Of a stretch of 29,866 bases of DNA, positions 2,910 through 18,409 are shown piece by piece. The stretch is taken from positions 64,001-93,866 of the IMG/VR virus record IMGVR_UViG_3300028908_000001; one strand, written 5' to 3'. The DNA is from a virus (lineage: Duplodnaviria > Heunggongvirae > Uroviricota > Caudoviricetes). Below the pieces are notes generated by a model. The model had not been told where the DNA came from. It worked only from the letters and a program-made list of their open reading frames with translations, and made no database searches. Numbering within the stretch: position 1 is the first letter of the stretch; the number at the start of each line of letters is the position of its first letter. Made by a program: the position numbers and the translations under genes.

Positions 2910-3890
2910 ATGCCAAAGCTGACGATTAGTGACGGCCGCTTGGTCATACGGGGACCTTCGGGCACACGCTATGTATTCGAGCGCGGGCAGTCCACGGAAG
3001 TTTTAGCAGAGGATGTGGAATACATTATGGCCACCGGGAAGCTATTCTCCTACTGGCAAGAGCAAATGGCCGCGCCGCAAAGGCAAATGCCGCTGCATAT
3101 CATTCGCCATCCGGGTTTGGGCGATAAAGTCTTTGCATTGGCCGCCGCGTGGGCCTTCAAACAAGAACACCCCGACATCACCATCTACTTCGAGACACAC
3201 GATTACTGCAAGAACTGGATTGAACGGGTGCCGTTTGTGCGATTCGGTCGCCCCGCCGAACTCGCTCAAACTGTCGATTTTGACAACATCCCTGCCAATG
3301 CGGGCGACCGCTGTAAGCTCTTCGGCAGGATGCTTGGCGTAGAAGTCAACGACATACGCTTCCCCGTGGAAACCTTTCCTTATTGGCGGCCGCTGCCTGA
3401 ACAGTATGCGGTATTCGCGCCGTGGTGCGGCCCTTGGAAACTGCGTAGTTTGCCACAGGATACCATCAAAGCCGCCCTACGGCACTTTACCGACGTTCCG
3501 CTTGCCATTGTATCAAAGGACCCTTGTCCGTTTCCGTCGTCGCATATCGATTTAACTGGCCCGCGCCAGGGGCCACTGGAGTGCTTGTGGGACATCCTTG
3601 GCAGCGCGGCGGCTGTTATCTCCGTCGATACCGGCATAACGTGGATGGCCGCCGCGTTGGGGAAGCCGACATTAGCATTCTTCGGGCACGTTCCTCCCCA
3701 AGACCGCGCGGCCGCCTGCCACACAGTCTATATCGTCGAGCCGCATATGGACTGCCCGATGTTTCCCTGTGGGGATCACGGTGCACCACCGGCCCCCTGC
3801 GGGGCCACAGAAGAACCCAAGTGCATGAAGGCATACACCCCAGAGGTTGTCCTCTGGAAAATCCGAGAGTTCTTGGCGATGGTGCTATGA
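2910..3890 (+). CDS. Glycosyltransferase family 9 (heptosyltransferase-like) with N-terminal extension
   Basis: GLGDKVFALAAAWAFKQEHP, AVISVDTGITWMAAALGKPTLAFFG and a C-terminal Cys cluster (CPMFPC..C..C) match WaaF/WaaC/WaaQ-type GT9. Confidence 0.88.
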   Translation: MPKLTISDGRLVIRGPSGTRYVFERGQSTEVLAEDVEYIMATGKLFSYWQEQMAAPQRQMPLHIIRHPGLGDKVFALAAAWAFKQEHPDITIYFETHDYCKNWIERVPFVRFGRPAELAQTVDFDNIPANAGDRCKLFGRMLGVEVNDIRFPVETFPYWRPLPEQYAVFAPWCGPWKLRSLPQDTIKAALRHFTDVPLAIVSKDPCPFPSSHIDLTGPRQGPLECLWDILGSAAAVISVDTGITWMAAALGKPTLAFFGHVPPQDRAAACHTVYIVEPHMDCPMFPCGDHGAPPAPCGATEEPKCMKAYTPEVVLWKIREFLAMVL

Positions 3891-4870
3891 ATATCTTATT
3901 TATTAGCCCCACGAGTTACACCGGCGGCGGCCAGCGCTGGCTGCAGATGCTGACTGGTGGCCTGACCGAACGTGGCCACCAGTGCAAGATTATCTTTTCC
4001 GAACGGGGACACCCCGGCACAATCTTCCACAACATCCTGCATGACATGGTGTTGCACCATCTCTGTTACAGGTGTTTCGAGTACGATTGGCCTGCCCGCG
4101 TGGCCGCTGCAATCGATGAGCACGAAATCGATGTGCTGGTTGTAGAACATTCGGAACGCATCGACGAGATAATTCCGTTGTGTAAGCGGCCGCCGCGGGT
4201 TGTGTTTGTAGACCACACTATGTGCCGCGAAACTGTAGACCAACTACGGGCCGTTGACGCTTGGGTTGATGAAGTGGTCTGCGTGTCGCACAAGATAGCA
4301 GCGAAGATAGACTGGTGCCCCGCAAAGGTGATACACAATGCCTGCCCGCCGGTGCCGAAGCTGGGGATAAACGTCCGCGAGTTCATGGGCATCCCCAAGG
4401 ATGCATTCGTGGTTGGCTACATCGGCCGCGTGGACCGCAACAAGACCGTGGACCATCTGGTTGGCGCAGCTATCAATCGCGGCTGGTGGCTGCTGATTGT
4501 CGGCCGCGGGCCGCTAATGGGCCATATCGCCAGCACGCAATACCCCCAGCTCAAAGTATTCCCAACCGATGTCTATTATGTCGGCGATTGGTACGAAGCG
4601 ATGGACGTATTCTGCTTGCCTTCTGAAGAAGAGGGCTTCCCCCTGACACCGTTGGAGGCGTTGTCGTGTGGTTGCCGCGTGGCGATGACACCAGTTTCGG
4701 ACTTCCCTGAGCTGTTCGGCGATAGCATAGCATTCTTCCCTCACAGGAGTGTTGAGTTGGTGGCCGCCGTGGAGAATGCGCCGCCGCCGGATGAGGCGCA
4801 GGCCATCATGCATGAGCAGCTTGGCCTCGACCGGATGATTGAGCAGTACTTGGAAGTTCTGGAGGGCTAA
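3887..4870 (+). CDS. Glycosyltransferase family 4 (GT-B, retaining)
   Basis: Start at ATG 3887 (ATGA overlap). MNILFISP..GGGQRW N-terminus; VGYIGRVDRNK; DVFCLPSEEEGFPLTPLEALSCG (E-x7-E motif). Confidence 0.92.
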   Translation: MNILFISPTSYTGGGQRWLQMLTGGLTERGHQCKIIFSERGHPGTIFHNILHDMVLHHLCYRCFEYDWPARVAAAIDEHEIDVLVVEHSERIDEIIPLCKRPPRVVFVDHTMCRETVDQLRAVDAWVDEVVCVSHKIAAKIDWCPAKVIHNACPPVPKLGINVREFMGIPKDAFVVGYIGRVDRNKTVDHLVGAAINRGWWLLIVGRGPLMGHIASTQYPQLKVFPTDVYYVGDWYEAMDVFCLPSEEEGFPLTPLEALSCGCRVAMTPVSDFPELFGDSIAFFPHRSVELVAAVENAPPPDEAQAIMHEQLGLDRMIEQYLEVLEG

Positions 4871-4873
4871 CAC

Positions 4874-5629
4874 ATGAACTTCGGCATGATCTGGGAAGTA
4901 GACAAGAAACACAAAATTGCCAAAATTACATTCTGGGATGGATTTGTGATGTACATGCCCCATCGGGGCAAGTGGGACTGCGAGGCTTTTCGCAACTACA
5001 ATTCCGTTGTACTGCTCGACCAGTACCGTGCGGGCGATTTCATACACAAAGACGACATAGTAATCGACGCGGGTGCTCATGTGGGCTTGTTCTCGTATTG
5101 GGCCGCGCAGCGCGGGGCCATCATTCACGCATTTGAACCGTATCAGCCCAATATCGAAGCATTTCGGTTACTACTCGGGGAGTATTCGCTCGAAGACAAA
5201 GTGGTGATCGTCGGCCGCGCGTTGAGTGACGAAGGCGGCCGCGTGCCATTCTGGGAGCACCCTGAGAACACGGGTAGCGGGCGCATAACCATCGAGGGCT
5301 TCGGCACCACGGAAGTGGAGGCACAGCGTTTGGATGACTGGGTAGCAGATGCGAAGCTTGAGCACGTTGACTTTATCAAGATAGATACTGAAGGCCACGA
5401 GCGGCAGGTTCTACGCGGCGCGACAGAAACAATTAGGCAGTTTCGGCCTGTGATAGCCGCCTCAGCCTATCACTTCCCCGAAGACGAGAAGGACCTGCCT
5501 CGGCTTGTCAACGACATCGTGGACGGCTATCATATCGTCGTAGAACGCGCGCGGGGCTATTTACCATGCGAGAAAGTGATGTTCGCTGTGCCGGAGGAAC
5601 GTCTTGGAAGCCATAATCCTTGGGCTTGA
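4874..5629 (+). CDS. FkbM-family SAM-dependent methyltransferase
   Basis: VIDAGAHVGLFS, IHAFEP and LDDW..VDFIKIDTEGHERQVLRGA motifs. Confidence 0.92.
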   Translation: MNFGMIWEVDKKHKIAKITFWDGFVMYMPHRGKWDCEAFRNYNSVVLLDQYRAGDFIHKDDIVIDAGAHVGLFSYWAAQRGAIIHAFEPYQPNIEAFRLLLGEYSLEDKVVIVGRALSDEGGRVPFWEHPENTGSGRITIEGFGTTEVEAQRLDDWVADAKLEHVDFIKIDTEGHERQVLRGATETIRQFRPVIAASAYHFPEDEKDLPRLVNDIVDGYHIVVERARGYLPCEKVMFAVPEERLGSHNPWA

Positions 5630-6599
5630 TGGATTGGAACCTTCGTTGGCCCGCCGGTATGATTGTCTTTCGCTGGAGTATCGGGGCTTCACGCAAGCCG
5701 AAACGAGCAAGACGCCCGTGGCGTGGACAGAGTTCGCCACGGGGCTGTCCATGTCAGAACACGGCATAACCGATTTCTGGCATCCTTCCGGCAGGGCATG
5801 GCTGAGCACCGACATCAAGCGGCCTTCCTACTGGTGGAATAGGCTTGACTATACTGTTGGGGTATTGGATGTGCCCGTTGTTACCAGCCCCGCGCGACCA
5901 ATAAACGGCTGGATGGTTGGCGGGCACACCATATATCCAGAGAGCAGGTGGCCCGCCGACCTGCCGGAGATAGACCCCCGCTACGACGCTTACGATTTCC
6001 CCGTGGGTTGGGCGCAGCTTGCTTGGGATCACGAGCCGCTGTGGGCAGAAGTTATCAAACAGATTGATGTTTGTGTTGCCTTCGCGAGGTATCATGTGAG
6101 GACAACGAAGGAAGCGATAGAGAGGCTGATGGCCGCGCGGCCGGTAGACATACTCGTCGTCTACCAGCACATCTCGGACAACATCGGCCATGGGTTCCTC
6201 ACCTGGCATCGTGAAGTATGCGAACAAACCTACTACATGCTGAATGCCCTGGCGCGGTGGCTGTGGAAGACCTATGATCCCGAGCTAAAGATTGTGCTGA
6301 GTGACCACGGGATGGTACCTGTTGAGCAAGATAGCCTTCGCCACCACCGGCGGCAGGTAACAGTAGATGGTCAAGTTACCTGGGAAGGCATGTTGAACGT
6401 GCCGCGCTTCGGGCAATTGTACACCCTCTGTTCGGGGGCGCATTCCGACGACCCGCCCGGGCACTTAGCTTCCAATCATCCGATGTTCCAAGGCACGTGG
6501 CGCTTGCGTGATATAGGCGACGCGATTGTGGGTATACTACAACCGGCGGCCGCCGGGGATGATGTTAGACATCACCTCGCAGCGTTGGGCTATCTATAA
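5604..6599 (+). CDS. Alkaline-phosphatase-superfamily enzyme (type I phosphodiesterase/nucleotide pyrophosphatase-like)
   Basis: TTG start after GGAGG. Motifs IILGLDG, KTPVAWTEFATG (Thr nucleophile region), DNIGH, VLSDHG and a C-terminal HLAALGYL. Confidence 0.82.
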   Translation: MEAIILGLDGLEPSLARRYDCLSLEYRGFTQAETSKTPVAWTEFATGLSMSEHGITDFWHPSGRAWLSTDIKRPSYWWNRLDYTVGVLDVPVVTSPARPINGWMVGGHTIYPESRWPADLPEIDPRYDAYDFPVGWAQLAWDHEPLWAEVIKQIDVCVAFARYHVRTTKEAIERLMAARPVDILVVYQHISDNIGHGFLTWHREVCEQTYYMLNALARWLWKTYDPELKIVLSDHGMVPVEQDSLRHHRRQVTVDGQVTWEGMLNVPRFGQLYTLCSGAHSDDPPGHLASNHPMFQGTWRLRDIGDAIVGILQPAAAGDDVRHHLAALGYL

Positions 6600-6620
6600 T
6601 AGCACTCGGAGGAAGCCAAC

Positions 6621-7046
6621 ATGGGCAGTGACTCTATGCGGGCGTTTCTGGAAGAGAAAGAAGCCTATGAAATATTCAACCTCGCAGCGTGGCCCCTATG
6701 GAATGATGCTTGTGCATTGATTGTGCTGCGCTGCGATGAGAAGAGATGCAAGCTCATACAACAGCTTGCCAAAGGCTCAGTCAAAACCCATCTTGTAGAT
6801 AGCCACACGATTGTGCTTTACAAATACGATTGGGCGTTGGAACTGTATAAAGCAGCGCAGCAAATAGAAGACCCGCGCTTGCGAGTGGCTCTTGTCGCCC
6901 TCCTCACAGGGGGAGCACCCCGAAGCATTCACGACACGCTGGAATGGATTGAGGACGAGAGCGAAGAAGCATTAGAAATAGCCCTGCTCGAAGCGGGGCT
7001 ACTAAGCGAGGAGCATGGCAATGGTCAAGGTAATACTGGAGTATAA
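6621..7046 (+). CDS. Hypothetical protein
   Basis: GGAGG RBS at 6608; it fills the gap inside the operon. No family recognised. Confidence 0.7.
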   Translation: MGSDSMRAFLEEKEAYEIFNLAAWPLWNDACALIVLRCDEKRCKLIQQLAKGSVKTHLVDSHTIVLYKYDWALELYKAAQQIEDPRLRVALVALLTGGAPRSIHDTLEWIEDESEEALEIALLEAGLLSEEHGNGQGNTGV

Positions 7047-7968
7047 TGGCCACCGCAGCGAACAAGTCGTAGAACCAATCATGGAGTTCCGCGACAAGCG
7101 TTTAGCTCTTCCTTCCGACTTCTTGGAAGCCCGCACGGTGGCCGTCGTCCGCGACGGCGGCCTCGGCGACGTCATCATGCTCACGGCGGCCATCCATCGT
7201 ATGGTGGAACTCTATCCCCACCTGCGCGTTGACTACTACGTCAACCCCATCTACGTGGAACTCTTCAAAGGTGACCCCTATATTGCTGATTGTCGCCCGC
7301 TGCAGGCCCTCGACAAGCGGTTCTATGATCTTGTGCTCGACTGCCGCCAGGTCGTGGAGAAGAGTCACCATGCGAAAGAAATAGACCGCGTTACGCTGTT
7401 CTCGATGCGACTTATCGGCGAAGAACCCCGCGAAGGCCCACGACTCTTCTTGCAGCCCCTGACTGGCGAACGTCATTGGCATGTGGACTCACTACTACAA
7501 CAAGCCACGGGCAAGCGCGTGGCCATTGCCCCTCGGTCAGCCTCTCCCTATCGCGATTGGCCCCATGCCAACGAACTGGCACGGCTCATAAAACAAAGCG
7601 GTAATACCCCCTACATCATAGATCATCACGATGAGAAGCTGGCCGCCGTGCCGGAGGCTATCCCTGCGAAGCTCGATCCTCTGCAGATAGCGTGGTTCCT
7701 TAAAGAAGTAGACGTGCTGGTCAGTACCGACACTGGCGTCTACCATGTGGCGGGGGCCGTCGAAGATGGGCCGTTCATGGTGGTTCTCTTCGGAAGTATC
7801 TTCCCGCCGCGCTTGCGCATGGCATGGTACAAGAACTACACAGCGCTGTTTGACCCGTCTTTGCCGTGTTTGGGATGTGATATGAGTCCCAAGTGTAAGC
7901 CGCCCGCGCCGTGCTTGGCGAACATCTCTGCGGAGCGCGTGTGGGAGACCATCGCGGGGCGGCTATAG
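7015..7968 (+). CDS. Glycosyltransferase family 9 (heptosyltransferase-like), second copy
   Basis: RDGGLGDVIMLTAAIHRMVELYP; DVLVSTDTGVYHVAGAV; C-terminal CLGC..C..PCL..ISAERVW. Confidence 0.9.
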   Translation: MAMVKVILEYNGHRSEQVVEPIMEFRDKRLALPSDFLEARTVAVVRDGGLGDVIMLTAAIHRMVELYPHLRVDYYVNPIYVELFKGDPYIADCRPLQALDKRFYDLVLDCRQVVEKSHHAKEIDRVTLFSMRLIGEEPREGPRLFLQPLTGERHWHVDSLLQQATGKRVAIAPRSASPYRDWPHANELARLIKQSGNTPYIIDHHDEKLAAVPEAIPAKLDPLQIAWFLKEVDVLVSTDTGVYHVAGAVEDGPFMVVLFGSIFPPRLRMAWYKNYTALFDPSLPCLGCDMSPKCKPPAPCLANISAERVWETIAGRL

Positions 7969-8047
7969 TGGAGGCGGCGGGAATCGAACCCGCGTCCGCC
8001 CCGGCGGGCTAATAGCCGCGCCGAGAACGTCGAGGCCTTCCGCCCCC
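7969..8047 (-). ncRNA. Miniature tmRNA: tRNA-like domain only, with no tag reading frame or pseudoknots
   Basis: Minus strand reads GGGGGCG GAAGGCCTCGAC GTTCTCGGCGCGGCTATTAGCCCGCCGGGGC GGAC GCGGG TTCGATT CCCGC CGCCTCC A. It has a 7-bp acceptor stem with G3:U and discriminator A, a stemless D-loop ending TCGAC, the GGAC linker and a canonical T arm, all as in ssrA. Confidence 0.85.
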
Positions 8048-8050
8048 CCA

Positions 8051-8389
8051 TCAATGTCCGAACAACATCTTGGCCGCCGCGAATGGGGCGCAAGTCAACG
8101 CAACCCACGAAAACCACAACCGCCACAGGGCGAACACCGCCACGATGACCGCTACTCCTATCATGGCCCAGCAGCCGTTGATCTCCGCCTGCAGCATTGA
8201 GTCGAAGTTGCCTTCCTCTGCTATGATTTGTTCTAGGCTGCGTTTGCGCCGATAAAAATGTCGCCCAACAAGCGCGGCGGCCACCAGCAAAACAACCGCA
8301 AACACCATCCCAGCGATTGCTTGCAGCCTGACGTATGCTAACGCGGATGCCCACATATGATTGCCGATATTGACAACAAAGTCACTCAT
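8051..8389 (-). CDS. Small two-TM membrane protein
   Basis: Two hydrophobic stretches (AIAGMVFAVVLLVAAALVG; WAMIGVAVIVAVFALW); co-oriented with the arm. Confidence 0.7.
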   Translation of the reverse strand: MSDFVVNIGNHMWASALAYVRLQAIAGMVFAVVLLVAAALVGRHFYRRKRSLEQIIAEEGNFDSMLQAEINGCWAMIGVAVIVAVFALWRLWFSWVALTCAPFAAAKMLFGH

Positions 8390-8432
8390 TGTGGGACACC
8401 CCCAGTATCTATCTACCTATACAGCGAGCACT

Positions 8433-8741
8433 TTATGCAGTATTTTTAGTCTCTATGGTGCCTACCTTTTCCACCCGGTATACATAGATACCGGTGGTGT
8501 ACTGCTCGATTTCCTCGACTGTCAGCTCATGCCCACGCTTCTCCGGCGGCATGTCCAGCGCGACAACGACAACTTCTTCGGCTTCCGCCGCCAGATCGAG
8601 CGGCAGCACCCCAATAACGCGCTTCCCGTGCACGTCATCCCTAGTGGCGTGAGAGATGACCATTTCATCGCCACTTATGATGCCGCGCTCACGGAGATAT
8701 TCCACCAGCGCTTGATGTCGGGTCACCACAATTGTTTCCAT
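8433..8741 (-). CDS. csx16: Csx16-like (Cas_VVA1548-type) protein, candidate cyclic-oligoadenylate ring nuclease
   Basis: VVTRH..LVEYL, VIGVLPLDLAA and LDMPPEKRGHELTVEEI match the Csx16 pattern (SRH.GA, IGTLP..LAA, L..P...RG.EL..EE) and the size of about 100 aa. GGGAGG RBS lies 8 nt upstream. Confidence 0.8.
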   Translation of the reverse strand: METIVVTRHQALVEYLRERGIISGDEMVISHATRDDVHGKRVIGVLPLDLAAEAEEVVVVALDMPPEKRGHELTVEEIEQYTTGIYVYRVEKVGTIETKNTA

Positions 8742-8764
8742 TTGTCATGCCTCCCGAGTTGTAG

Positions 8765-8802
8765 TTATCCACACTTAGCATACCCGCACAACGGGTACTT
8801 CA
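8765..8802 (-). repeat. Imperfect direct repeat, copy 2 (orphan copy of the RNR 3' end)
   Basis: 31/38 nt identical to 9123-9160; translates as KYPLCGYAKCG* versus KCPLCGYAKCG*. Confidence 0.9.
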
Positions 8803-9117
8803 ATCTTTCCTCCCAGATATTCTTTCTTCCCAATCGGCGGGAGTAGGAATGGGTTCCAGTGCATGAGGACTGCCGCCACGTTTGGCGGCCGCGCGGCAAG
8901 CCTTCGCCACCAGCTCATAGCGCTGTTCCTCGGATAACATCTTGGCCGCCCAACGCACAACGTCGGCCAAGCAACTAGCACACAAGTCCGCCCATGTTGT
9001 TCGCCAATCTCCCGCGCCAGCAGCATCCGTATAGCGGTCAATGTTTATTCTCAATCTACCTGCGGCGTCGGGCTCGAGGAGCTTGCCGCACATGTCGCAT
9101 TTGCGAGCCAGCGTCAT
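8800..9117 (-). CDS. Small zinc-finger protein (CDMC...CASC)
   Basis: Two CxxC pairs; the likely start MTLARK at 9117 lies just after the RNR stop. Confidence 0.72.
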   Translation of the reverse strand: MTLARKCDMCGKLLEPDAAGRLRINIDRYTDAAGAGDWRTTWADLCASCLADVVRWAAKMLSEEQRYELVAKACRAAAKRGGSPHALEPIPTPADWEERISGRKD

Positions 9118-9122
9118 TATTA

Positions 9123-9160
9123 TCACCCACACTTAGCATATCCACATAGCGGGCACTTCA
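9123..9160 (-). repeat. Imperfect direct repeat, copy 1 (functional RNR 3' end)
   Basis: Pairs with 8765-8802. Confidence 0.9.
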
Positions 9161-12100
9161 TACATCCTTCTGAGTGTTCCATCGGCCCGCCGCATTCTGG
9201 GCAAGCACCATTCTTGCGCTCTTCGATCTGTACTCGCTGGCCCACGGCGGCCTCCAAGGCCTGTCCAAAAGCATCAGCACACGACAATACCTGGCGGCCA
9301 CCGGGTCCCCACGCGGGCATGTGACACGATATGCCACGCAGGTGCTTGATGATGTGCTCGGGGGCCACGCCTGAACGCAGGGCCAGCGAAATCATGCGGG
9401 CCAGTGCCTCCATCTGTGACGAAGCACATCCGCCAGCCTTCCCGATATTTCCAAAGACCTCAAAGGGCTTACTTTCCTCATCGAAGTTGATGGTGACGTA
9501 TAGTGTCCCGCATCCGGTAGTTACGGCCCGCGTTTCGCCCCTCAAGACATGGGGCCGCTTGCGCGGGCCTTCTTGCTTCTTCTCTTCTTTCTTCTTGCCC
9601 GTGGTCAGCACCTGCCCCGCGCGGCAACCATCCCTGTACACCGTGATACCCTTGCAGCCCAGATTGTATGCCAGCATGAATGCTTTGGCAACATCATCCT
9701 CGGAAGCATCATGCGGCATGTTGATTGTTTTGGAGCAAGCCGCATCTGTGTACTTCTGAAACGCCGCTTGGATACGCACATGCTGCTCTGGTGGCACTTC
9801 GTGGGCCGTCACGAAGAGTTTCTGTATGTCTTCGGGGACTTCTGATAACCCACGAACGGTGCCGCGAGCGGCCACCTTCTTCATCAATTCCTCAGAATAG
9901 AAGCCGCGGGCGCGGGCTATCTCCACAAACAGCGGATTGACTTCCACCAGCGTCTCGCCATCGAGAACATGCTTCTCATACGCCACGGCGAAGAGGGGTT
10001 CGATACCGCTTGAGCAGCCCGCGATGATGGAGATGCTGCCCGTCGGGGCTATCGTTGTACATGCCGCATTCCTCATCGGGCGGCCATCTTTTGCCCAAAC
10101 ACTTTCTTCCCACAGCGGGAAGTTGCCGCGCTCTTGAGCCAATGCGGTAGAAGCATGGTGAGCCGTATTCTGGACGTGGCTCATAATCTTCTCGGCCCAC
10201 TCGATAGCCTCGGGGCTATCATAGGCCACGCCCAGTTTAATCAAAGCATCGGCGAAGCCCATGATACCGAGGCCGATCTTGCGACTGGCCCGCGTGGCCT
10301 CCTCTATCTCCGGTAGCGGATACTTGTTGACGTCTATCACGTTGTCCAAGAACCGCACAGCCAGCGCAACTGCTTGGGCCAGTGCATACCAGTCGATGTG
10401 ATCCTCATGCACGAACTTGGATATATCTATTGAGCCGAGGTTGCACGACTCGTAGGGCCGCAGCGGTTGTTCCGCGCAGTTCCCAGTGACTATGCCATTG
10501 AATATGAGGCTGTGATATGTGGGCTGAGTAACGTCGTAGACCGACTCCTCGCCGATATAAGTAATTTCTGCAATCTCATCGCTGAACCGCTGGCGCTTGC
10601 GCAAGACTTTTCCTTGCCGCCAAGCCTCGTACTTTTCTTTGTGATGTGGCAACCGCCATCCTACAAGCTCGGCGAAGCGGGTGCGCGACTCACCATCAAT
10701 AATTAGCTCATACCAAGCAGCACATTGGTATGCCTTGGAGCCGCCGTGGCCATCAGGCAATAGGTGCTCACCAGCATCCCTGCGCTTGTAAACGCGGCTA
10801 AAAATGCCGAAGTTGGCCAGCAGCTTCTGCACATCATGCAACAAAGAGGGGCGCGTGCTAGATAGGCGGCAAGAACAGCGCGTTCCATCACTTGCGCCTA
10901 TTACGGTGCCATCGGTAGCAAATAGCCCATGCAAGTAGCCTATCACGCATTCGCGCGTTCCTTGCCATATCAGCTTCGGTACATGGAATTTGCAATCCTC
11001 GGTGACGCCAATGGAAGCGAGGGCGCGGCTTAATCTCTTAGAAGCCCACATCCACTTGTCGCGCTGGTCCTGTATTTGCTTGCGCGGCGACTGTTCGGGG
11101 ACCAATTGTTTGATAGCCGCTTCTATATCGGGGGCCAACACCTTCTTGGCACCCCACAAGCCGATGTTGACGCGCCCCGACTTATCCCAGTGGCCGTCGC
11201 CAGTTAGCACGCCTACAAGCAGCCCCAATTCATAATTGCCGAGCTGCCCCCAAGCGCCTTCGCCAGATTGGATGAGTAATTCATCCCCCACGCGAAGCTC
11301 GGAGAGCCGCAGTTTGCCGCGCGAAGTATAGAACTCGTGCCATGCTGTAGCCTTAATCTCATACCCCGCCTTGGTACGCACGCGAAACACAGGAGCCTTC
11401 TTGGCAGTCATGAATGCAGGCGTGGCTTCTTGCAAGACAACCCCTCGTTCTCCATCGATGGTCCGCCGGTCAACAGCCACGCGCACCGCTTCTCCCGACT
11501 CATACAGCTCCTTCATAGGGACAAGGCCCCTCTCGGTGTGCAGCAGTGTATCACCCGTGACACATGGGTTAGTGCTTTCGATGGGATGATTGGGCAGAGT
11601 ATGCGCAGCATTTACGCGGTCGATGAACAGCAGCCCCGGCTCGCCCATTGCCCAAGCATTGTGCACTATCTTATTCCATACCTCGCGGGCCTTTAGTTTC
11701 TTTACAGCCTTCCCCGTGCGCGGATTGATAAGTTCATATTCTCGATCCTCCTCGACGGCAGCCATAAACTCGTCTGTAATGGCTACCGAGATATTGAAGT
11801 TTGATAGCCGCCCGTCTTCCATCTTGGCGTCTATGAACTCCAAGATGTCGGGATGGTCCACGCGAAGTATGCCCATATTGGCCCCGCGTCGTTTACCACC
11901 TTGCTTAATGGTCTGCGTGGCCGCATCATACGCCTCCAGGAAGGAGACTGGCCCGGAAGCCACACCCTTGGTTGAGCGAACAATGTCACCGCGCGGCCGC
12001 AGCCGAGAGAACGAAAAGCCTGTGTTGTGTATTACCACCAAACCGTTCTGACCCGCGACATAGTTATTGTATGTATCTACCGTGAAGTCGTAGAAGTACT

Positions 12101-13781
12101 CGGCTGGTGCTTGGGGTACCTCCACGGCCTTAACGCGCCGTAATGCCGGGATCAGCCGCAGCAGGGCTTCTACGCGCCGTTGGCTGGCCGGAGAAAGACG
12201 CCGTGTTGACAATATCTGTCCCAGCATCGCAGTGGCTTGCGCGGGGGAAACACGGTTCGTTAAACGCCAGCGCTGGACATACAGCGTTTCGCCAGCGACA
12301 TCTACACCCTTGCGCCAAGCGTCCACACAGTGAGTACTTATGCCCACCTCCGCCAACAGCTTTTCAACATCACTAAAATCCCACGTGATGTTCAGACCGG
12401 CAGTGGGGCTGCTTAGCCAAGCTTGCAGGCGGCGGAGACGCTGTGAATGCTGTATATATCTGCCAGACAAGTCATAGAGCCGCTGTAGCATATCGGTTCC
12501 AGACACATATATTTCATACGTCGAGCGCCAATGCGCTTTTCGCGGTTGACGACATCGCGCCCGCGTCCTAATGCCGCAGAGGCTGAACAAGGCCGCAAGC
12601 TGCTGGGCAAGTTTAGCACTGGCCGTAGCATAGACAAACTCTGCCTTAGACTCGGAAACAAAACCATCGGAGTCAAAGAGACCCGCGATGAACGTGGCAA
12701 TGGCTTCGCGACTCTGGAGGACAATCTTGGGAACCTCGACTTTTTCGTACTTCTCGCCCGGGCTAAGCCCGGTGTCGTGCGCCACGCACCGCACAAAATC
12801 TTGGTTGAGGCATGTAATGTAGAATACGCCATTCTTATCACGCTGTATAGCATAGCTGTGCCCCGCCAAAAGCGATAAAATCTGCTGCAGCTTCTTGATG
12901 GGTCCCCCATCCGCATCATACAGCCGCAGCCGCAAGCTTTGCTTGCCACTCAATCGGTGCCAACCCAAGTTGCCATTGCCGATGAAAAAGCCCAACAGAT
13001 AGGCATAATCAGGCGTGATATGCGGAACGTCAAGTAAATGCCCTATAGCTGCGATGGCGGTTTCGTTCGGAGCCACGACCCAATCGCCAGCCGCGAGCTC
13101 GGCAGCAGTCTTGGTGGCTACACGCCCGTTTTCAAAAACAAAAAACGGGTGCCAAGAGGATGTAAGCACGGACAGCCCACCGTTGAAGCGTACTAATCTC
13201 TGCTCCTCGGGCGGTACTCGGAAACGCCAAACATGGGTTATAGCAGCGGGCTTGAATGTGTTGTCTTGCGCATCGAAAGCGACAGTAGACAGCGCGCCGC
13301 TTGACACGCTGTAGCATTCTCCGGTGGGGGCCTCAACAGGCTCGGCTCCTCTGTGAATGGCATCCTCCACCACATCGCGGATCGGGCATAGTCCCGCAGT
13401 GTTAGTAAAGACGATGGCATCGCCGCTGATGCACCCGCCGCCCCCTTGATGGATCAGCGCCGCTTGTTTCATAGTCTCGAAGATACCATCCAGCGAGTCA
13501 TCGATGGGAAGTACGAAACAAGCGGATAGAAGCCCTATCTCGGTGCCCGCGTTCATCAACGTGGGGCTATTCGGCAAGAACTTCAGCGAAGACATTAGTT
13601 CATAGAACTTGGAGGCCCACTCGTCGGGGTCGTTGCCGTACCTTTCTTCAGCCGCCGCCACGGCGCGGGCCACCCGCCAGAACATCTCATCAGGAGTTTC
13701 TACAACGTTACCTTCCTCGTCGCGCAGGAGATACCGCTTCTCAAGCAGACGCAAAGCATTCTGGGACAAAGAAGCCCCCAT
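9123..13781 (-). CDS. nrdJ: Class II (adenosylcobalamin-dependent) ribonucleotide reductase containing two inteins; about 720 aa after splicing
   Basis: FLPNSPTLMNAG, LSACFV, GGKRRGANM, TNP|CAEQPL..ESCNLGS and TIAPTGSIS motifs, a C-terminal TSCPD-type domain and a Zn ribbon; no ATP cone. The start at 13781 follows GGAGG. Confidence 0.95.
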   Translation of the reverse strand: MGASLSQNALRLLEKRYLLRDEEGNVVETPDEMFWRVARAVAAAEERYGNDPDEWASKFYELMSSLKFLPNSPTLMNAGTEIGLLSACFVLPIDDSLDGIFETMKQAALIHQGGGGCISGDAIVFTNTAGLCPIRDVVEDAIHRGAEPVEAPTGECYSVSSGALSTVAFDAQDNTFKPAAITHVWRFRVPPEEQRLVRFNGGLSVLTSSWHPFFVFENGRVATKTAAELAAGDWVVAPNETAIAAIGHLLDVPHITPDYAYLLGFFIGNGNLGWHRLSGKQSLRLRLYDADGGPIKKLQQILSLLAGHSYAIQRDKNGVFYITCLNQDFVRCVAHDTGLSPGEKYEKVEVPKIVLQSREAIATFIAGLFDSDGFVSESKAEFVYATASAKLAQQLAALFSLCGIRTRARCRQPRKAHWRSTYEIYVSGTDMLQRLYDLSGRYIQHSQRLRRLQAWLSSPTAGLNITWDFSDVEKLLAEVGISTHCVDAWRKGVDVAGETLYVQRWRLTNRVSPAQATAMLGQILSTRRLSPASQRRVEALLRLIPALRRVKAVEVPQAPAEYFYDFTVDTYNNYVAGQNGLVVIHNTGFSFSRLRPRGDIVRSTKGVASGPVSFLEAYDAATQTIKQGGKRRGANMGILRVDHPDILEFIDAKMEDGRLSNFNISVAITDEFMAAVEEDREYELINPRTGKAVKKLKAREVWNKIVHNAWAMGEPGLLFIDRVNAAHTLPNHPIESTNPCVTGDTLLHTERGLVPMKELYESGEAVRVAVDRRTIDGERGVVLQEATPAFMTAKKAPVFRVRTKAGYEIKATAWHEFYTSRGKLRLSELRVGDELLIQSGEGAWGQLGNYELGLLVGVLTGDGHWDKSGRVNIGLWGAKKVLAPDIEAAIKQLVPEQSPRKQIQDQRDKWMWASKRLSRALASIGVTEDCKFHVPKLIWQGTRECVIGYLHGLFATDGTVIGASDGTRCSCRLSSTRPSLLHDVQKLLANFGIFSRVYKRRDAGEHLLPDGHGGSKAYQCAAWYELIIDGESRTRFAELVGWRLPHHKEKYEAWRQGKVLRKRQRFSDEIAEITYIGEESVYDVTQPTYHSLIFNGIVTGNCAEQPLRPYESCNLGSIDISKFVHEDHIDWYALAQAVALAVRFLDNVIDVNKYPLPEIEEATRASRKIGLGIMGFADALIKLGVAYDSPEAIEWAEKIMSHVQNTAHHASTALAQERGNFPLWEESVWAKDGRPMRNAACTTIAPTGSISIIAGCSSGIEPLFAVAYEKHVLDGETLVEVNPLFVEIARARGFYSEELMKKVAARGTVRGLSEVPEDIQKLFVTAHEVPPEQHVRIQAAFQKYTDAACSKTINMPHDASEDDVAKAFMLAYNLGCKGITVYRDGCRAGQVLTTGKKKEEKKQEGPRKRPHVLRGETRAVTTGCGTLYVTINFDEESKPFEVFGNIGKAGGCASSQMEALARMISLALRSGVAPEHIIKHLRGISCHMPAWGPGGRQVLSCADAFGQALEAAVGQRVQIEERKNGACPECGGPMEHSEGCMKCPLCGYAKCG
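10479..11564 (-). mobile_element. Intein 2 in RNR (362 aa, LAGLIDADG homing endonuclease) at the NP|C active-site position
   Basis: Begins CVTGDTLLHT and ends IVTGN followed by Cys. Endonuclease motifs LLVGVLTGDG and YLHGLFATDG. Confidence 0.93.
12024..13433 (-). mobile_element. Intein 1 in RNR (470 aa, LAGLIDADG-type) at the GGG|TG position
   Basis: Begins CISGDAIV and ends FYDFTV..NNYVAG..VVIHN followed by Thr. Motifs YLLGFFIGNG and FIAGLFDSDG. Confidence 0.93.
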
Positions 13782-13814
13782 CGACAAAGCCTCCAATCTA
13801 CAGGGGAATAGCGA

Positions 13815-16566: not shown

Positions 16567-17142
16567 CTACACCCCTAGCTCTTTTGTTATATGCCGCCAG
16601 CCGTCCACGTTTACATCATAATAGCGCAACTGGGCGGATGCCGCCATAGACCTATCGGCCACACTGTCGCCTATCACAACAGTACGCGGCGACGCTAAAT
16701 CTATCCCTAGCATCTCTTCGGCCGCCGCCAACATGCCCGTGCGTGGCTTGCGCCACGTGCATCCTTGCTCCCCAGTGTGGGTACAGACAAACACATGAAT
16801 ATCATAGGGCAGCGCCAGCGGCTCGAACTTCATATAGAGGTCGCCGCGCGGCCGCTTCTCTACAGCATAATATATCGTATCCGACACGCCGAGAACATCA
16901 CACCATTGTGATACAACCTCCAGCATAACTGCCTCGAATGCATCTAAGTCTAACAGCCCGCGACCGATACAAGACTGATTCGTCACACACACCAGTTGCC
17001 AACCGGCCAACCCTGCGCCATCAAGCGCTTCGACTGCTTCAGGTGTGATTTTGACTTGGTTGTGGCTAACCACATAGTACAGCCCTCGGCTGCTGCATTC
17101 TATGAGGGTGTCATCCCTATCAAAGAAAATAGCGGGTCTCAT
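16567..17142 (-). CDS. gmhB: GmhB-like HAD phosphatase (heptose-1,7-bisphosphate phosphatase family)
   Basis: AIFFDRDDTL, VCVTNQSCIGRG, CTH...C.WRKP.TGML and VIGDSVAD motifs. GGAGGT RBS precedes ATG 17142. Confidence 0.85.
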   Translation of the reverse strand: MRPAIFFDRDDTLIECSSRGLYYVVSHNQVKITPEAVEALDGAGLAGWQLVCVTNQSCIGRGLLDLDAFEAVMLEVVSQWCDVLGVSDTIYYAVEKRPRGDLYMKFEPLALPYDIHVFVCTHTGEQGCTWRKPRTGMLAAAEEMLGIDLASPRTVVIGDSVADRSMAASAQLRYYDVNVDGWRHITKELGV

Positions 17143-18023
17143 GATATGTACCTCCGTTCCCACAACCCCGAGACATACTGGTGCGCGAACCCATGGGCGT
17201 CGTTGACGTAGCCCAGCAGCGCTTCGGGGCTACCGTCGCCACTGGTAACCCACGCTTGCAAGAAAGCCGCCGAGAACGCATCACCAGCACCGGAATATGC
17301 CCACGGCGGGCAATCAACAGCCACCACGGGGACACTATCGACAAGCTCGCCGTCTACATAGAGCGTGGTGGGCTGCCGACCATGCGTTACTACGACGGCT
17401 TTGGTCTTTCTCATCCAATCCTCGCCGATGGCCTCGCGCCACGACATGAATTCTTCCTCATTTAGCTTGATGATAGCCTGCGCGGCCCACTCGTCCAAGT
17501 CTGCTGGTGGTTCTCTGCTGCCATCCCACAACAATTTGGCATCCGGTGTCATTAAATAATCCCTTGCCCGTCTCCAAACATCGGCCATGCCATATCCATG
17601 ATCCACCATTAAGACACCATCATAGGGCGGGCTTAGATGCCGTGGGGAGAATGGAAGCTCGTGAAATGCTTCCAACACAACAGTAGGACTTGGCGTGTCG
17701 ATCCTGCACGGTTTCTTGCCTTGTATACGCATCCGCAAGGCCGGCACACCCGACACGGGCACAGGAACCGTATGAACCTGTGCATGAAACGCACACATCC
17801 GCTGTATCTTTGTGCGCCAAAAAGAGATACCACCGAGAGGAGCCAAGAGAGACACGCGGGCCTCTGGAATTATCTGCTTAAGACACCAAGCAGCGTTGCC
17901 AGCCCCGCCGAGGGCATAGCGCGGGCTATCACACTTATACGTTGGCATATCCTCGCGGGTTGTTAGCCGCGCGGCTTCCAGTAAAACGTCGAGGAAGAAA
18001 TCACCCATGACTAGATAGCGCAC
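17139..18023 (-). CDS. PfkB/ribokinase-family sugar kinase resembling the HldE/RfaE heptose-7-phosphate kinase domain
   Basis: LVMGDFFLD, ALGGAGNAA, VLMVDHGYG, KLNEEEF, VVVTHG and SGAGDAF follow the RfaE kinase layout. GTG start at 18023; overlaps gmhB by 4 nt. Confidence 0.8.
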   Translation of the reverse strand: MRYLVMGDFFLDVLLEAARLTTREDMPTYKCDSPRYALGGAGNAAWCLKQIIPEARVSLLAPLGGISFWRTKIQRMCAFHAQVHTVPVPVSGVPALRMRIQGKKPCRIDTPSPTVVLEAFHELPFSPRHLSPPYDGVLMVDHGYGMADVWRRARDYLMTPDAKLLWDGSREPPADLDEWAAQAIIKLNEEEFMSWREAIGEDWMRKTKAVVVTHGRQPTTLYVDGELVDSVPVVAVDCPPWAYSGAGDAFSAAFLQAWVTSGDGSPEALLGYVNDAHGFAHQYVSGLWERRYIS

Positions 18024-18025
18024 GC

Positions 18026-18409
18026 CTACTCCCCCTCTGTGAGAAAGCCCGCTAAGGGATACGTCAGCCAACCAATAACCTGCAGCCAGAAATATATCTT
18101 ACCTATGAGATGGTCGGCCACGCCCGCCCACGCAAGCCAACCCCTGCCCCACACAAACCAGACGGCGGCACCTATCAACCCGAAAGCTGCCAATACGAGC
18201 ACGTACTCTGCCCAGATGCCCACACGCTGCCCCAACGGCGTCCGCAGCCACGCCTTGCCTTGTGCCGCTGTGGTAAAGACGCTGTTGACAAGGCTCGCCA
18301 CCAGCACAACGAGCGCAAACCGCGCGGCAGCTTCGTGGCCAACAAATATGTATGTCAACAGCCCCCAGAACAAGACGGCGAATATGGCCCTCACATATAT
18401 GCGCATCAT
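18026..18409 (-). CDS. Multi-pass membrane protein, holin candidate
   Basis: Three to four hydrophobic segments in 127 aa; lies two genes upstream of the endolysin. Confidence 0.55.
   Translation of the reverse strand: MMRIYVRAIFAVLFWGLLTYIFVGHEAAARFALVVLVASLVNSVFTTAAQGKAWLRTPLGQRVGIWAEYVLVLAAFGLIGAAVWFVWGRGWLAWAGVADHLIGKIYFWLQVIGWLTYPLAGFLTEGE

Follow-up and report, generated by a model that had tools for sequence, protein, structure and literature searches.

Csx16 and the ring nucleases of viruses

Viral ring nucleases that serve as anti-CRISPRs form an established class, to which AcrIII-1, AcrIII-2 and, probably, Crn4b belong. A host Csx16 assayed in EDTA converts cA4 fully to linear products, and leaves cA3 and cA6 untouched (PMC12409355). 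The degradation of cA4 that a first, sequence-only reading of the locus described here had mentioned is thus published, and is cA4-specific. Hoikkala et al. (2025, PMC12409355) counted Csx16 in 2 phage genomes out of 28,114. These are probably the Methanobacterium viruses Drs3 (ORF3) and PhiF3 (ORF30), which gave the only Csx16 matches found in INPHARED. A search of the literature that reached few subscription journals yielded neither a test of any Csx16 as an anti-CRISPR nor a description of the branch of the family reported below.

A csx16 gene in a complete phage genome

The gene under study is carried by a phage known from a virus record of 93,866 bases, which has a 127-base terminal repeat and is rated complete; the genome measures 93.7 kb. 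The window, i.e. the whole stretch of DNA analysed (29,866 nucleotides), is the last third of the record. Terminase, portal, tyrosine integrase, endolysin, sliding clamp and RecA-like genes are all encoded by the phage. No close relative of the phage was found at the csx16 locus.

The csx16 reading frame (P0002, 8433..8741, minus strand) starts with the ATG at 8741, ends with the TAA that closes at 8433, and encodes 102 aa, a putative cA4 ring nuclease. The Shine-Dalgarno sequence GGAGG (8750..8754, minus strand) is located 8 nt 5' of the ATG, so that the strong ribosome binding site previously noticed is indeed there. Membership of the Csx16 family, which had been proposed from motifs, was borne out by profile searches. 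The protein matches PF09652 (Cas_VVA1548, Csx16) with 73.1 bits and E 2e-20, the gathering cut-off being 25, and the alignment covers profile positions 2-90 of 91, i.e. the whole domain. The Csx16 models of PADLOC also match, the best with E 6e-20. The score on the NCBIfam TIGR02620 model, a CRISPR-associated equivalog domain, is 24.7 bits (E 2e-5), under the cut-off of 46.35; six other members of the same branch score 16-26, Drs3 and PhiF3 about 45, and the canonical Allochromatium protein 113. The codon adaptation of csx16 (0.74) is the same as that of the phage core genes, and denotes native usage. A promoter scan performed at chance level, and gave no convincing promoter for csx16 itself.

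The frame is overlapped by an antisense ORF of 161 aa (8361-8846, plus strand), of which it might be a shadow; that csx16 is not a gene, or is an assembly artefact, is nevertheless extremely improbable. This reading was rejected in view of the full-length family match, the ribosome binding site, the 1,414 matching cluster representatives and the conserved residues. One Logan contig of 41.5 kb moreover covers positions 7970-10500 with zero differences from the phage, although it is maybe not independent, as it comes from a 2019 hydrothermal-vent metagenome that is possibly the source sample. Sequence comparisons confirm csx16 as an intact, translatable and correctly identified Csx16-family gene of a complete tailed phage.

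The absence of a cas operon and of an array, earlier noted for the window, holds for the whole 93.7-kb genome. No CRISPR array was detected there by a repeat-spacer scan that recovers a real array in one of the comparison loci (L011), and no Cas1, Cas10 or RAMP proteins were found by searches that each gave matches in control genomes. A phage-borne CRISPR locus was hence rejected, and csx16 is stand-alone, outside any type III locus. DUF1874 (the AcrIII-1 family) is similarly missing from the genome. In a PADLOC scan of 95 phage proteins, only methyltransferases were found among the matches listed (25 of 85 families).

Other genes of the phage deserve mention. A Mg-chelatase-family ATPase resembling ComM/YifB is encoded at 16887-18332, minus strand (L138), and has homologues in two loci hosting csx16 relatives (L051, L072). 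Glycosyltransferase genes are clustered at 2910-7968 (plus strand) and 16567-18071 (minus strand), and include GT9-like, GT4, FkbM methyltransferase and phosphodiesterase-family members. By reading of the sequences, HAD phosphatase and PfkB kinase genes accompany the cluster, in a set that looks heptose-pathway-like.

Neighbourhood of csx16

Towards the distal end of the leftward replication arm, where csx16 is located, the order is NrdJ, orphan gene, csx16, hydrophobic gene, mini-tmRNA. NrdJ, the upstream neighbour, is a B12-dependent ribonucleotide reductase (RNR) with two LAGLIDADG inteins (9123..13796, minus strand), the exons of which are 63-76% identical in DNA to genes of the class that probably includes the host. 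The orphan gene (8800..9132, minus strand) encodes about 105-110 aa with an N-terminal CxxC; no relatives of it were found. On its two sides the 3' end of RNR is repeated directly, in diverged form (8765-8805 and 9123-9165, minus strand). The second of these is the true RNR end. The first (8765..8805) is a copy of the last codons, and still translates as RNR C-terminal residues plus stop. Since 23 nt separate the end of this diverged copy from the ATG of csx16, we infer that csx16 was once located directly behind an RNR gene, and that the CxxC orphan was inserted later. The codon adaptation of the orphan, 0.67 versus 0.74 for csx16, lends weak support to its later arrival. No joint skipping the orphan between the two RNR-tail repeats was found in the contigs of one run, which drop rare variants.

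Directly downstream of csx16 is a gene encoding a hydrophobic product of 112 aa (8051..8389, minus strand), probably a membrane protein, with no family match. The arm ends with a tag-less mini-tmRNA (7966..8047, minus strand), which matches RF00023 with 61.5 bits (gathering cut-off 47) and consists of the tRNA-like domain only. Both ends of the domain are present, and about 300 positions of the model are absent. The mini-tmRNA could perhaps be an integration core as well. Its 3' 28 nt are also found in high-depth contigs of the source run.

An RNR gene and a tag-less tmRNA as neighbours might suggest that the protein works outside cyclic-nucleotide immunity, for example in a nucleotide or RNA-end metabolism tied to either of them, and it is true that a CRISPR link was seen at none of the relative loci examined. 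This is very unlikely, because neither RNR nor either flanking gene resembling those of this phage was found in any of about 100 relative loci, and cleavage of cA4 is the sole activity demonstrated in the family. A neighbourhood so little conserved is the pattern that an accessory gene moving on its own should leave.

Csx16 relatives in viruses and plasmids

An exhaustive search retrieved 1,414 cluster representatives with E<=1e-3, far more than chance would give; at 1e-10 the number is 582. The best 151 relatives include 108 proteins of more than 125 aa, and 12 in which two domains stand in tandem. Seeded scanning located 40 IMG/VR loci, including a few near-duplicates, and 59 metagenome loci, many of which are short. 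Neither a CRISPR array nor any of 17 type III proteins was found at these roughly 100 loci. None of the 40 whole IMG/VR virus records hosting a csx16 relative has a RAMP protein over cut-off or a DUF1874 protein. One of the records (L056, G020:C1:46841-47551) contains a lone weak RAMP-like match of 20 bits, under the cut-off. PHROGs provided one weak match, of unknown function. A scan of GTDB gave three matches, which are not a census, as one narrow pattern was used.

Relatives about 50% identical to the phage protein reside on the plasmids pDEIPR02 of Deinococcus and pMESIL02 of Allomeiothermus, in both cases outside CRISPR loci. In Deinococcus proteolyticus pDEIPR02 the member is stand-alone (L005:8001-8285), among small co-oriented genes, ssb and RES-domain genes, in a run which looks like a plasmid leading region. 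Allomeiothermus silvanus pMESIL02, a cultured and tractable plasmid, hosts two branch genes (L012:5998-8013 and L126:5989-6774), each with two Csx16-like domains; one encodes 671 aa, and one adjoins conjugation genes. An unknown domain of about 140 aa, the same or similar by eye, either precedes or follows the Csx16 domain in P0015, P0038, P0066 and L031:9995-10708.

CRISPR-associated Csx16 proteins are about 35% identical to the phage protein, the CRISPR-linked Allochromatium copy about 37%. The phage protein scores 47 bits on a profile of canonical Csx16, versus 138 on a profile of its own branch. A quick IQ-TREE tree, built on 98 columns, places the query together with 79 rows from viruses, plasmids and metagenomes on one side of a split with SH-aLRT 97. 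On the other side of the split are proteobacterial CRISPR-associated Csx16, an archaeal plasmid copy, and Drs3 and PhiF3, both on long branches. The tree is unrooted and its sampling biased, the first set having been picked for its resemblance to the query, and the second being proteobacterial; it shows a distinct branch, and no direction of transfer is claimed.

Conserved residues, fold and dimer model

The polar cluster of Csx16 is complete in the phage protein, which has T7-R8-H9, H31, G44-x-L46-P47 and R69-G70-x-E72-L73. All the residues that are near-invariant both in 123 canonical sequences and in the mobile branch are present. A four-residue helix segment is missing from the branch, this protein included, and several positions invariant in the canonical set differ in it. 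The phage protein is changed at W15, T45 and N49-type positions, and for this its specificity could differ. A protein that counters defence by another substrate or mode, either as a cA4 sponge or by degrading other cyclic nucleotides (cA3, cA6, CBASS signals), is accordingly worth considering, though rather unlikely. The branch is distinct from the host type that was tested, non-enzymatic sponges are known among the related Csx15 proteins (PMC13148439), cA3 too is cut by Csx20 when the concentration is high (PMC12409355), and the first copy is degenerate in some tandem relatives. Yet the phage protein has kept every polar residue that is a candidate for catalysis, with 84-99% conservation in the branch, and a sponge is disfavoured by the large amounts of cA4 which type III systems make (PMC13148439).

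The AF2 model of the phage protein has a pLDDT of 96.5. Its top structural match among 48,161 chains is the DUF1874 protein AFV3-109 (2j6c), with Z 5.1, rmsd 2.5 and 73 aligned residues; the Crn2 domain of Csx1-Crn2 follows with Z 4.0. A structural match thus stands beside the PF09652 match; on one or the other the sequence-only reading had made its case depend. These Z scores are middling, and informative only alongside the sequence match; they repeat the result published for Csx16, Z 4.8 to 2J6B (AFV3-109) (Hoikkala 2025, PMC12409355). Foldseek gave no match at E<=1e-3 against PDB and BFVD, and phmmer only chance matches against PDB.

The same early reading had called the two families unrelated, which is too strong, as a DUF1874 protein, albeit at a weak score, is the closest fold, and Makarova 2020, according to PMC8284326, had already remarked on a partial similarity. 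It was right that the hallmark motif of AcrIII-1 is missing: GH-x-[SA]-T, present in 10 of 10 DUF1874 sequences inspected, is absent from the phage protein. Membership of DUF1874 was rejected on this ground and for lack of a PF08960 match. Comparison by hhalign aligned 12 C-terminal columns only, with probability 6% and a score of 20.3 versus 17.6 for the best of 30 shuffles. The structural alignments are given as ranges and not as residue pairs, model 1-91 to AFV3-109 37-109 and model 1-92 to Crn2 487-563. If these ranges were ungapped, H9 might fall on the catalytic H45 of AFV3-109 and H495 of Crn2; the extended hhalign alignment pairs H31, not H9, with the catalytic histidine of DUF1874.

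Dimer modelling, suggested at the outset, was carried out with two copies of the chain and AMP. The homodimer reached an ipSAE of 0.79 versus 0.00 for the best control, with contact agreement of 100% and pLDDT 92. The ipSAE mark is passed by 20 of 30 solved homo-pairs and by 1 of 23 single chains, and the AMP ligand is unscored. The phage protein is hence predicted to be a homodimer. The 12 tandem two-domain relatives are what is expected for an obligate dimer.

Host lineage and origin of the gene

The named best matches of the phage sliding clamp belong to Armatimonadota, with 35-41% identity. This is the likely host phylum, the assignment resting on clamp identity without a spacer match. A spacer search with the DNA of the window as query was dominated by matches to RNR, and says nothing for or against spacers. 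Cas10 is over cut-off in 43 of 201 Armatimonadota genomes, and is found in 69 of the 201 at E<=1e-3. Of 79 genomes from the likely class of the host, 3 have Csx1-type genes. A search for the Card1/Can2 family gave no match anywhere, control genomes included, and is thus uninformative. The branch profile matched none of the 201 genomes, which are incomplete MAGs searched without a positive control. In a second phylum, PF09652 was over cut-off in 1 of 301 genomes, a Dehalococcoidia MAG also met in the GTDB scan. With Cas10 in 43-69 of the genomes and no Csx16 of the branch, the target type III defence plausibly exists in the host lineage, and a host-lineage donor was not found.

It had been supposed that the phage uses a captured host off-switch. 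Recent capture from the host was rejected on account of native codon usage, of kin residing on viruses and plasmids without cas genes, and of the lack of matches among the Armatimonadota genomes.

Proposed function

We regard it as rather probable that the phage protein cleaves cA4 as a homodimer, and in this way counters type III defence. Two chains are predicted to pair via the C-terminal strand and the G44-P47 region. From what is known of the family, cA4 would bind across the conserved face including T7/R8/H9, H31, R69 and E72, and would be cut without metal into short linear adenylates, as by a host Csx16 in EDTA, H9 or H31 being the probable general acid. In infection, the enzyme would lower the cA4 produced by host Cas10. 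Effectors activated by cA4, such as Csx1, would stay off, and the phage would replicate despite a matching type III spacer. The recurrence of stand-alone relatives in 40 IMG/VR loci, in non-CRISPR plasmid regions and in the archaeal viruses Drs3 and PhiF3 provides supporting context. Against this reading, the activity of the mobile branch is a prediction, identity to the CRISPR-associated proteins is low, and the TIGR02620 cut-off is missed. Caution is also called for by viral AcrIII-2, which gave no rescue in a plasmid assay in vivo, and by the challenge to the native role of AcrIII-1 (PMC12751052).

Timing has also to be weighed. The expression of csx16 may be late, since the gene comes after RNR, where the arm is about to end and far from its first genes, and no promoter of csx16 itself was convincing; the system to be countered senses early RNA. 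The protein could therefore be an active cA4 nuclease that is ineffective as an anti-CRISPR in lytic infection, because made too late, or that damps self-targeting by type III systems while the phage persists as a lysogen or in a carrier state. The place of csx16 so far along the replication arm and the tyrosine integrase-family gene of the phage are in line with this. [quoted passage not shown] We judge this unlikely nonetheless, as the gene has been kept both by unrelated viruses and by plasmid regions with many small genes next to ssb, which fits counter-defence, and the integrase could be a resolvase, lysogeny being only a possibility for this phage.

Comparison with known systems

The anti-type III nuclease proposed here is close to CRISPR-associated Csx16 (PF09652/TIGR02620, PMC12409355), with which it shares the Pfam family over the full length, the invariant residues, the AFV3-109 structural neighbour and the predicted homodimer. 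It differs from it in being stand-alone rather than part of a type III locus, in the sequence, about 35% identical, in lacking the short helix segment, and in falling under the TIGR02620 cut-off. The Csx16 of Drs3 and PhiF3 are likewise virus-encoded, stand-alone and about 100 aa long; they belong in contrast to archaeal viruses, are about 33% identical, and are found on the canonical side of the tree, outside the branch of this phage. AcrIII-1/Crn2 (DUF1874, PF08960) resembles the phage protein in the proposed role, in being a small dimeric alpha/beta protein with a weak fold match, and in a C-terminal G-x-x-L-[ST]-x-x-E-I stretch, but is set apart by the profile and motif differences described above. 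The viral SAVED ring nuclease AcrIII-2 (PMC12751052) and Crn4b of phages and plasmids (PMC12830947) are also host-type ring nuclease families found on mobile elements, as probable anti-CRISPRs. Their folds are unrelated to Csx16; AcrIII-2 gave no rescue in vivo, and the Acr role of Crn4b is putative.

A wider conjecture is advanced tentatively. Clustered at 50% identity, the Csx16 branch might amount to hundreds of groups, fusions and tandem forms being numerous, confined almost only to viruses and plasmids, and might rank among the commonest type III anti-CRISPRs of uncultured phages, overlooked as sets of cultured phages have two distant members. It would maybe be a distant homologue of AcrIII-1, and the source, not an offshoot, of the CRISPR-associated copies.

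The phage csx16 would be a new example of a published idea. Its confirmation would place a third family of viral ring nucleases beside AcrIII-1 and AcrIII-2, and provide a small, probably thermotolerant protein to probe the disputed protection of phages by cA4 destruction. A single gene is unsurprising, phage Csx16 having been counted in 2025; of more value is how broad the mobile branch is.
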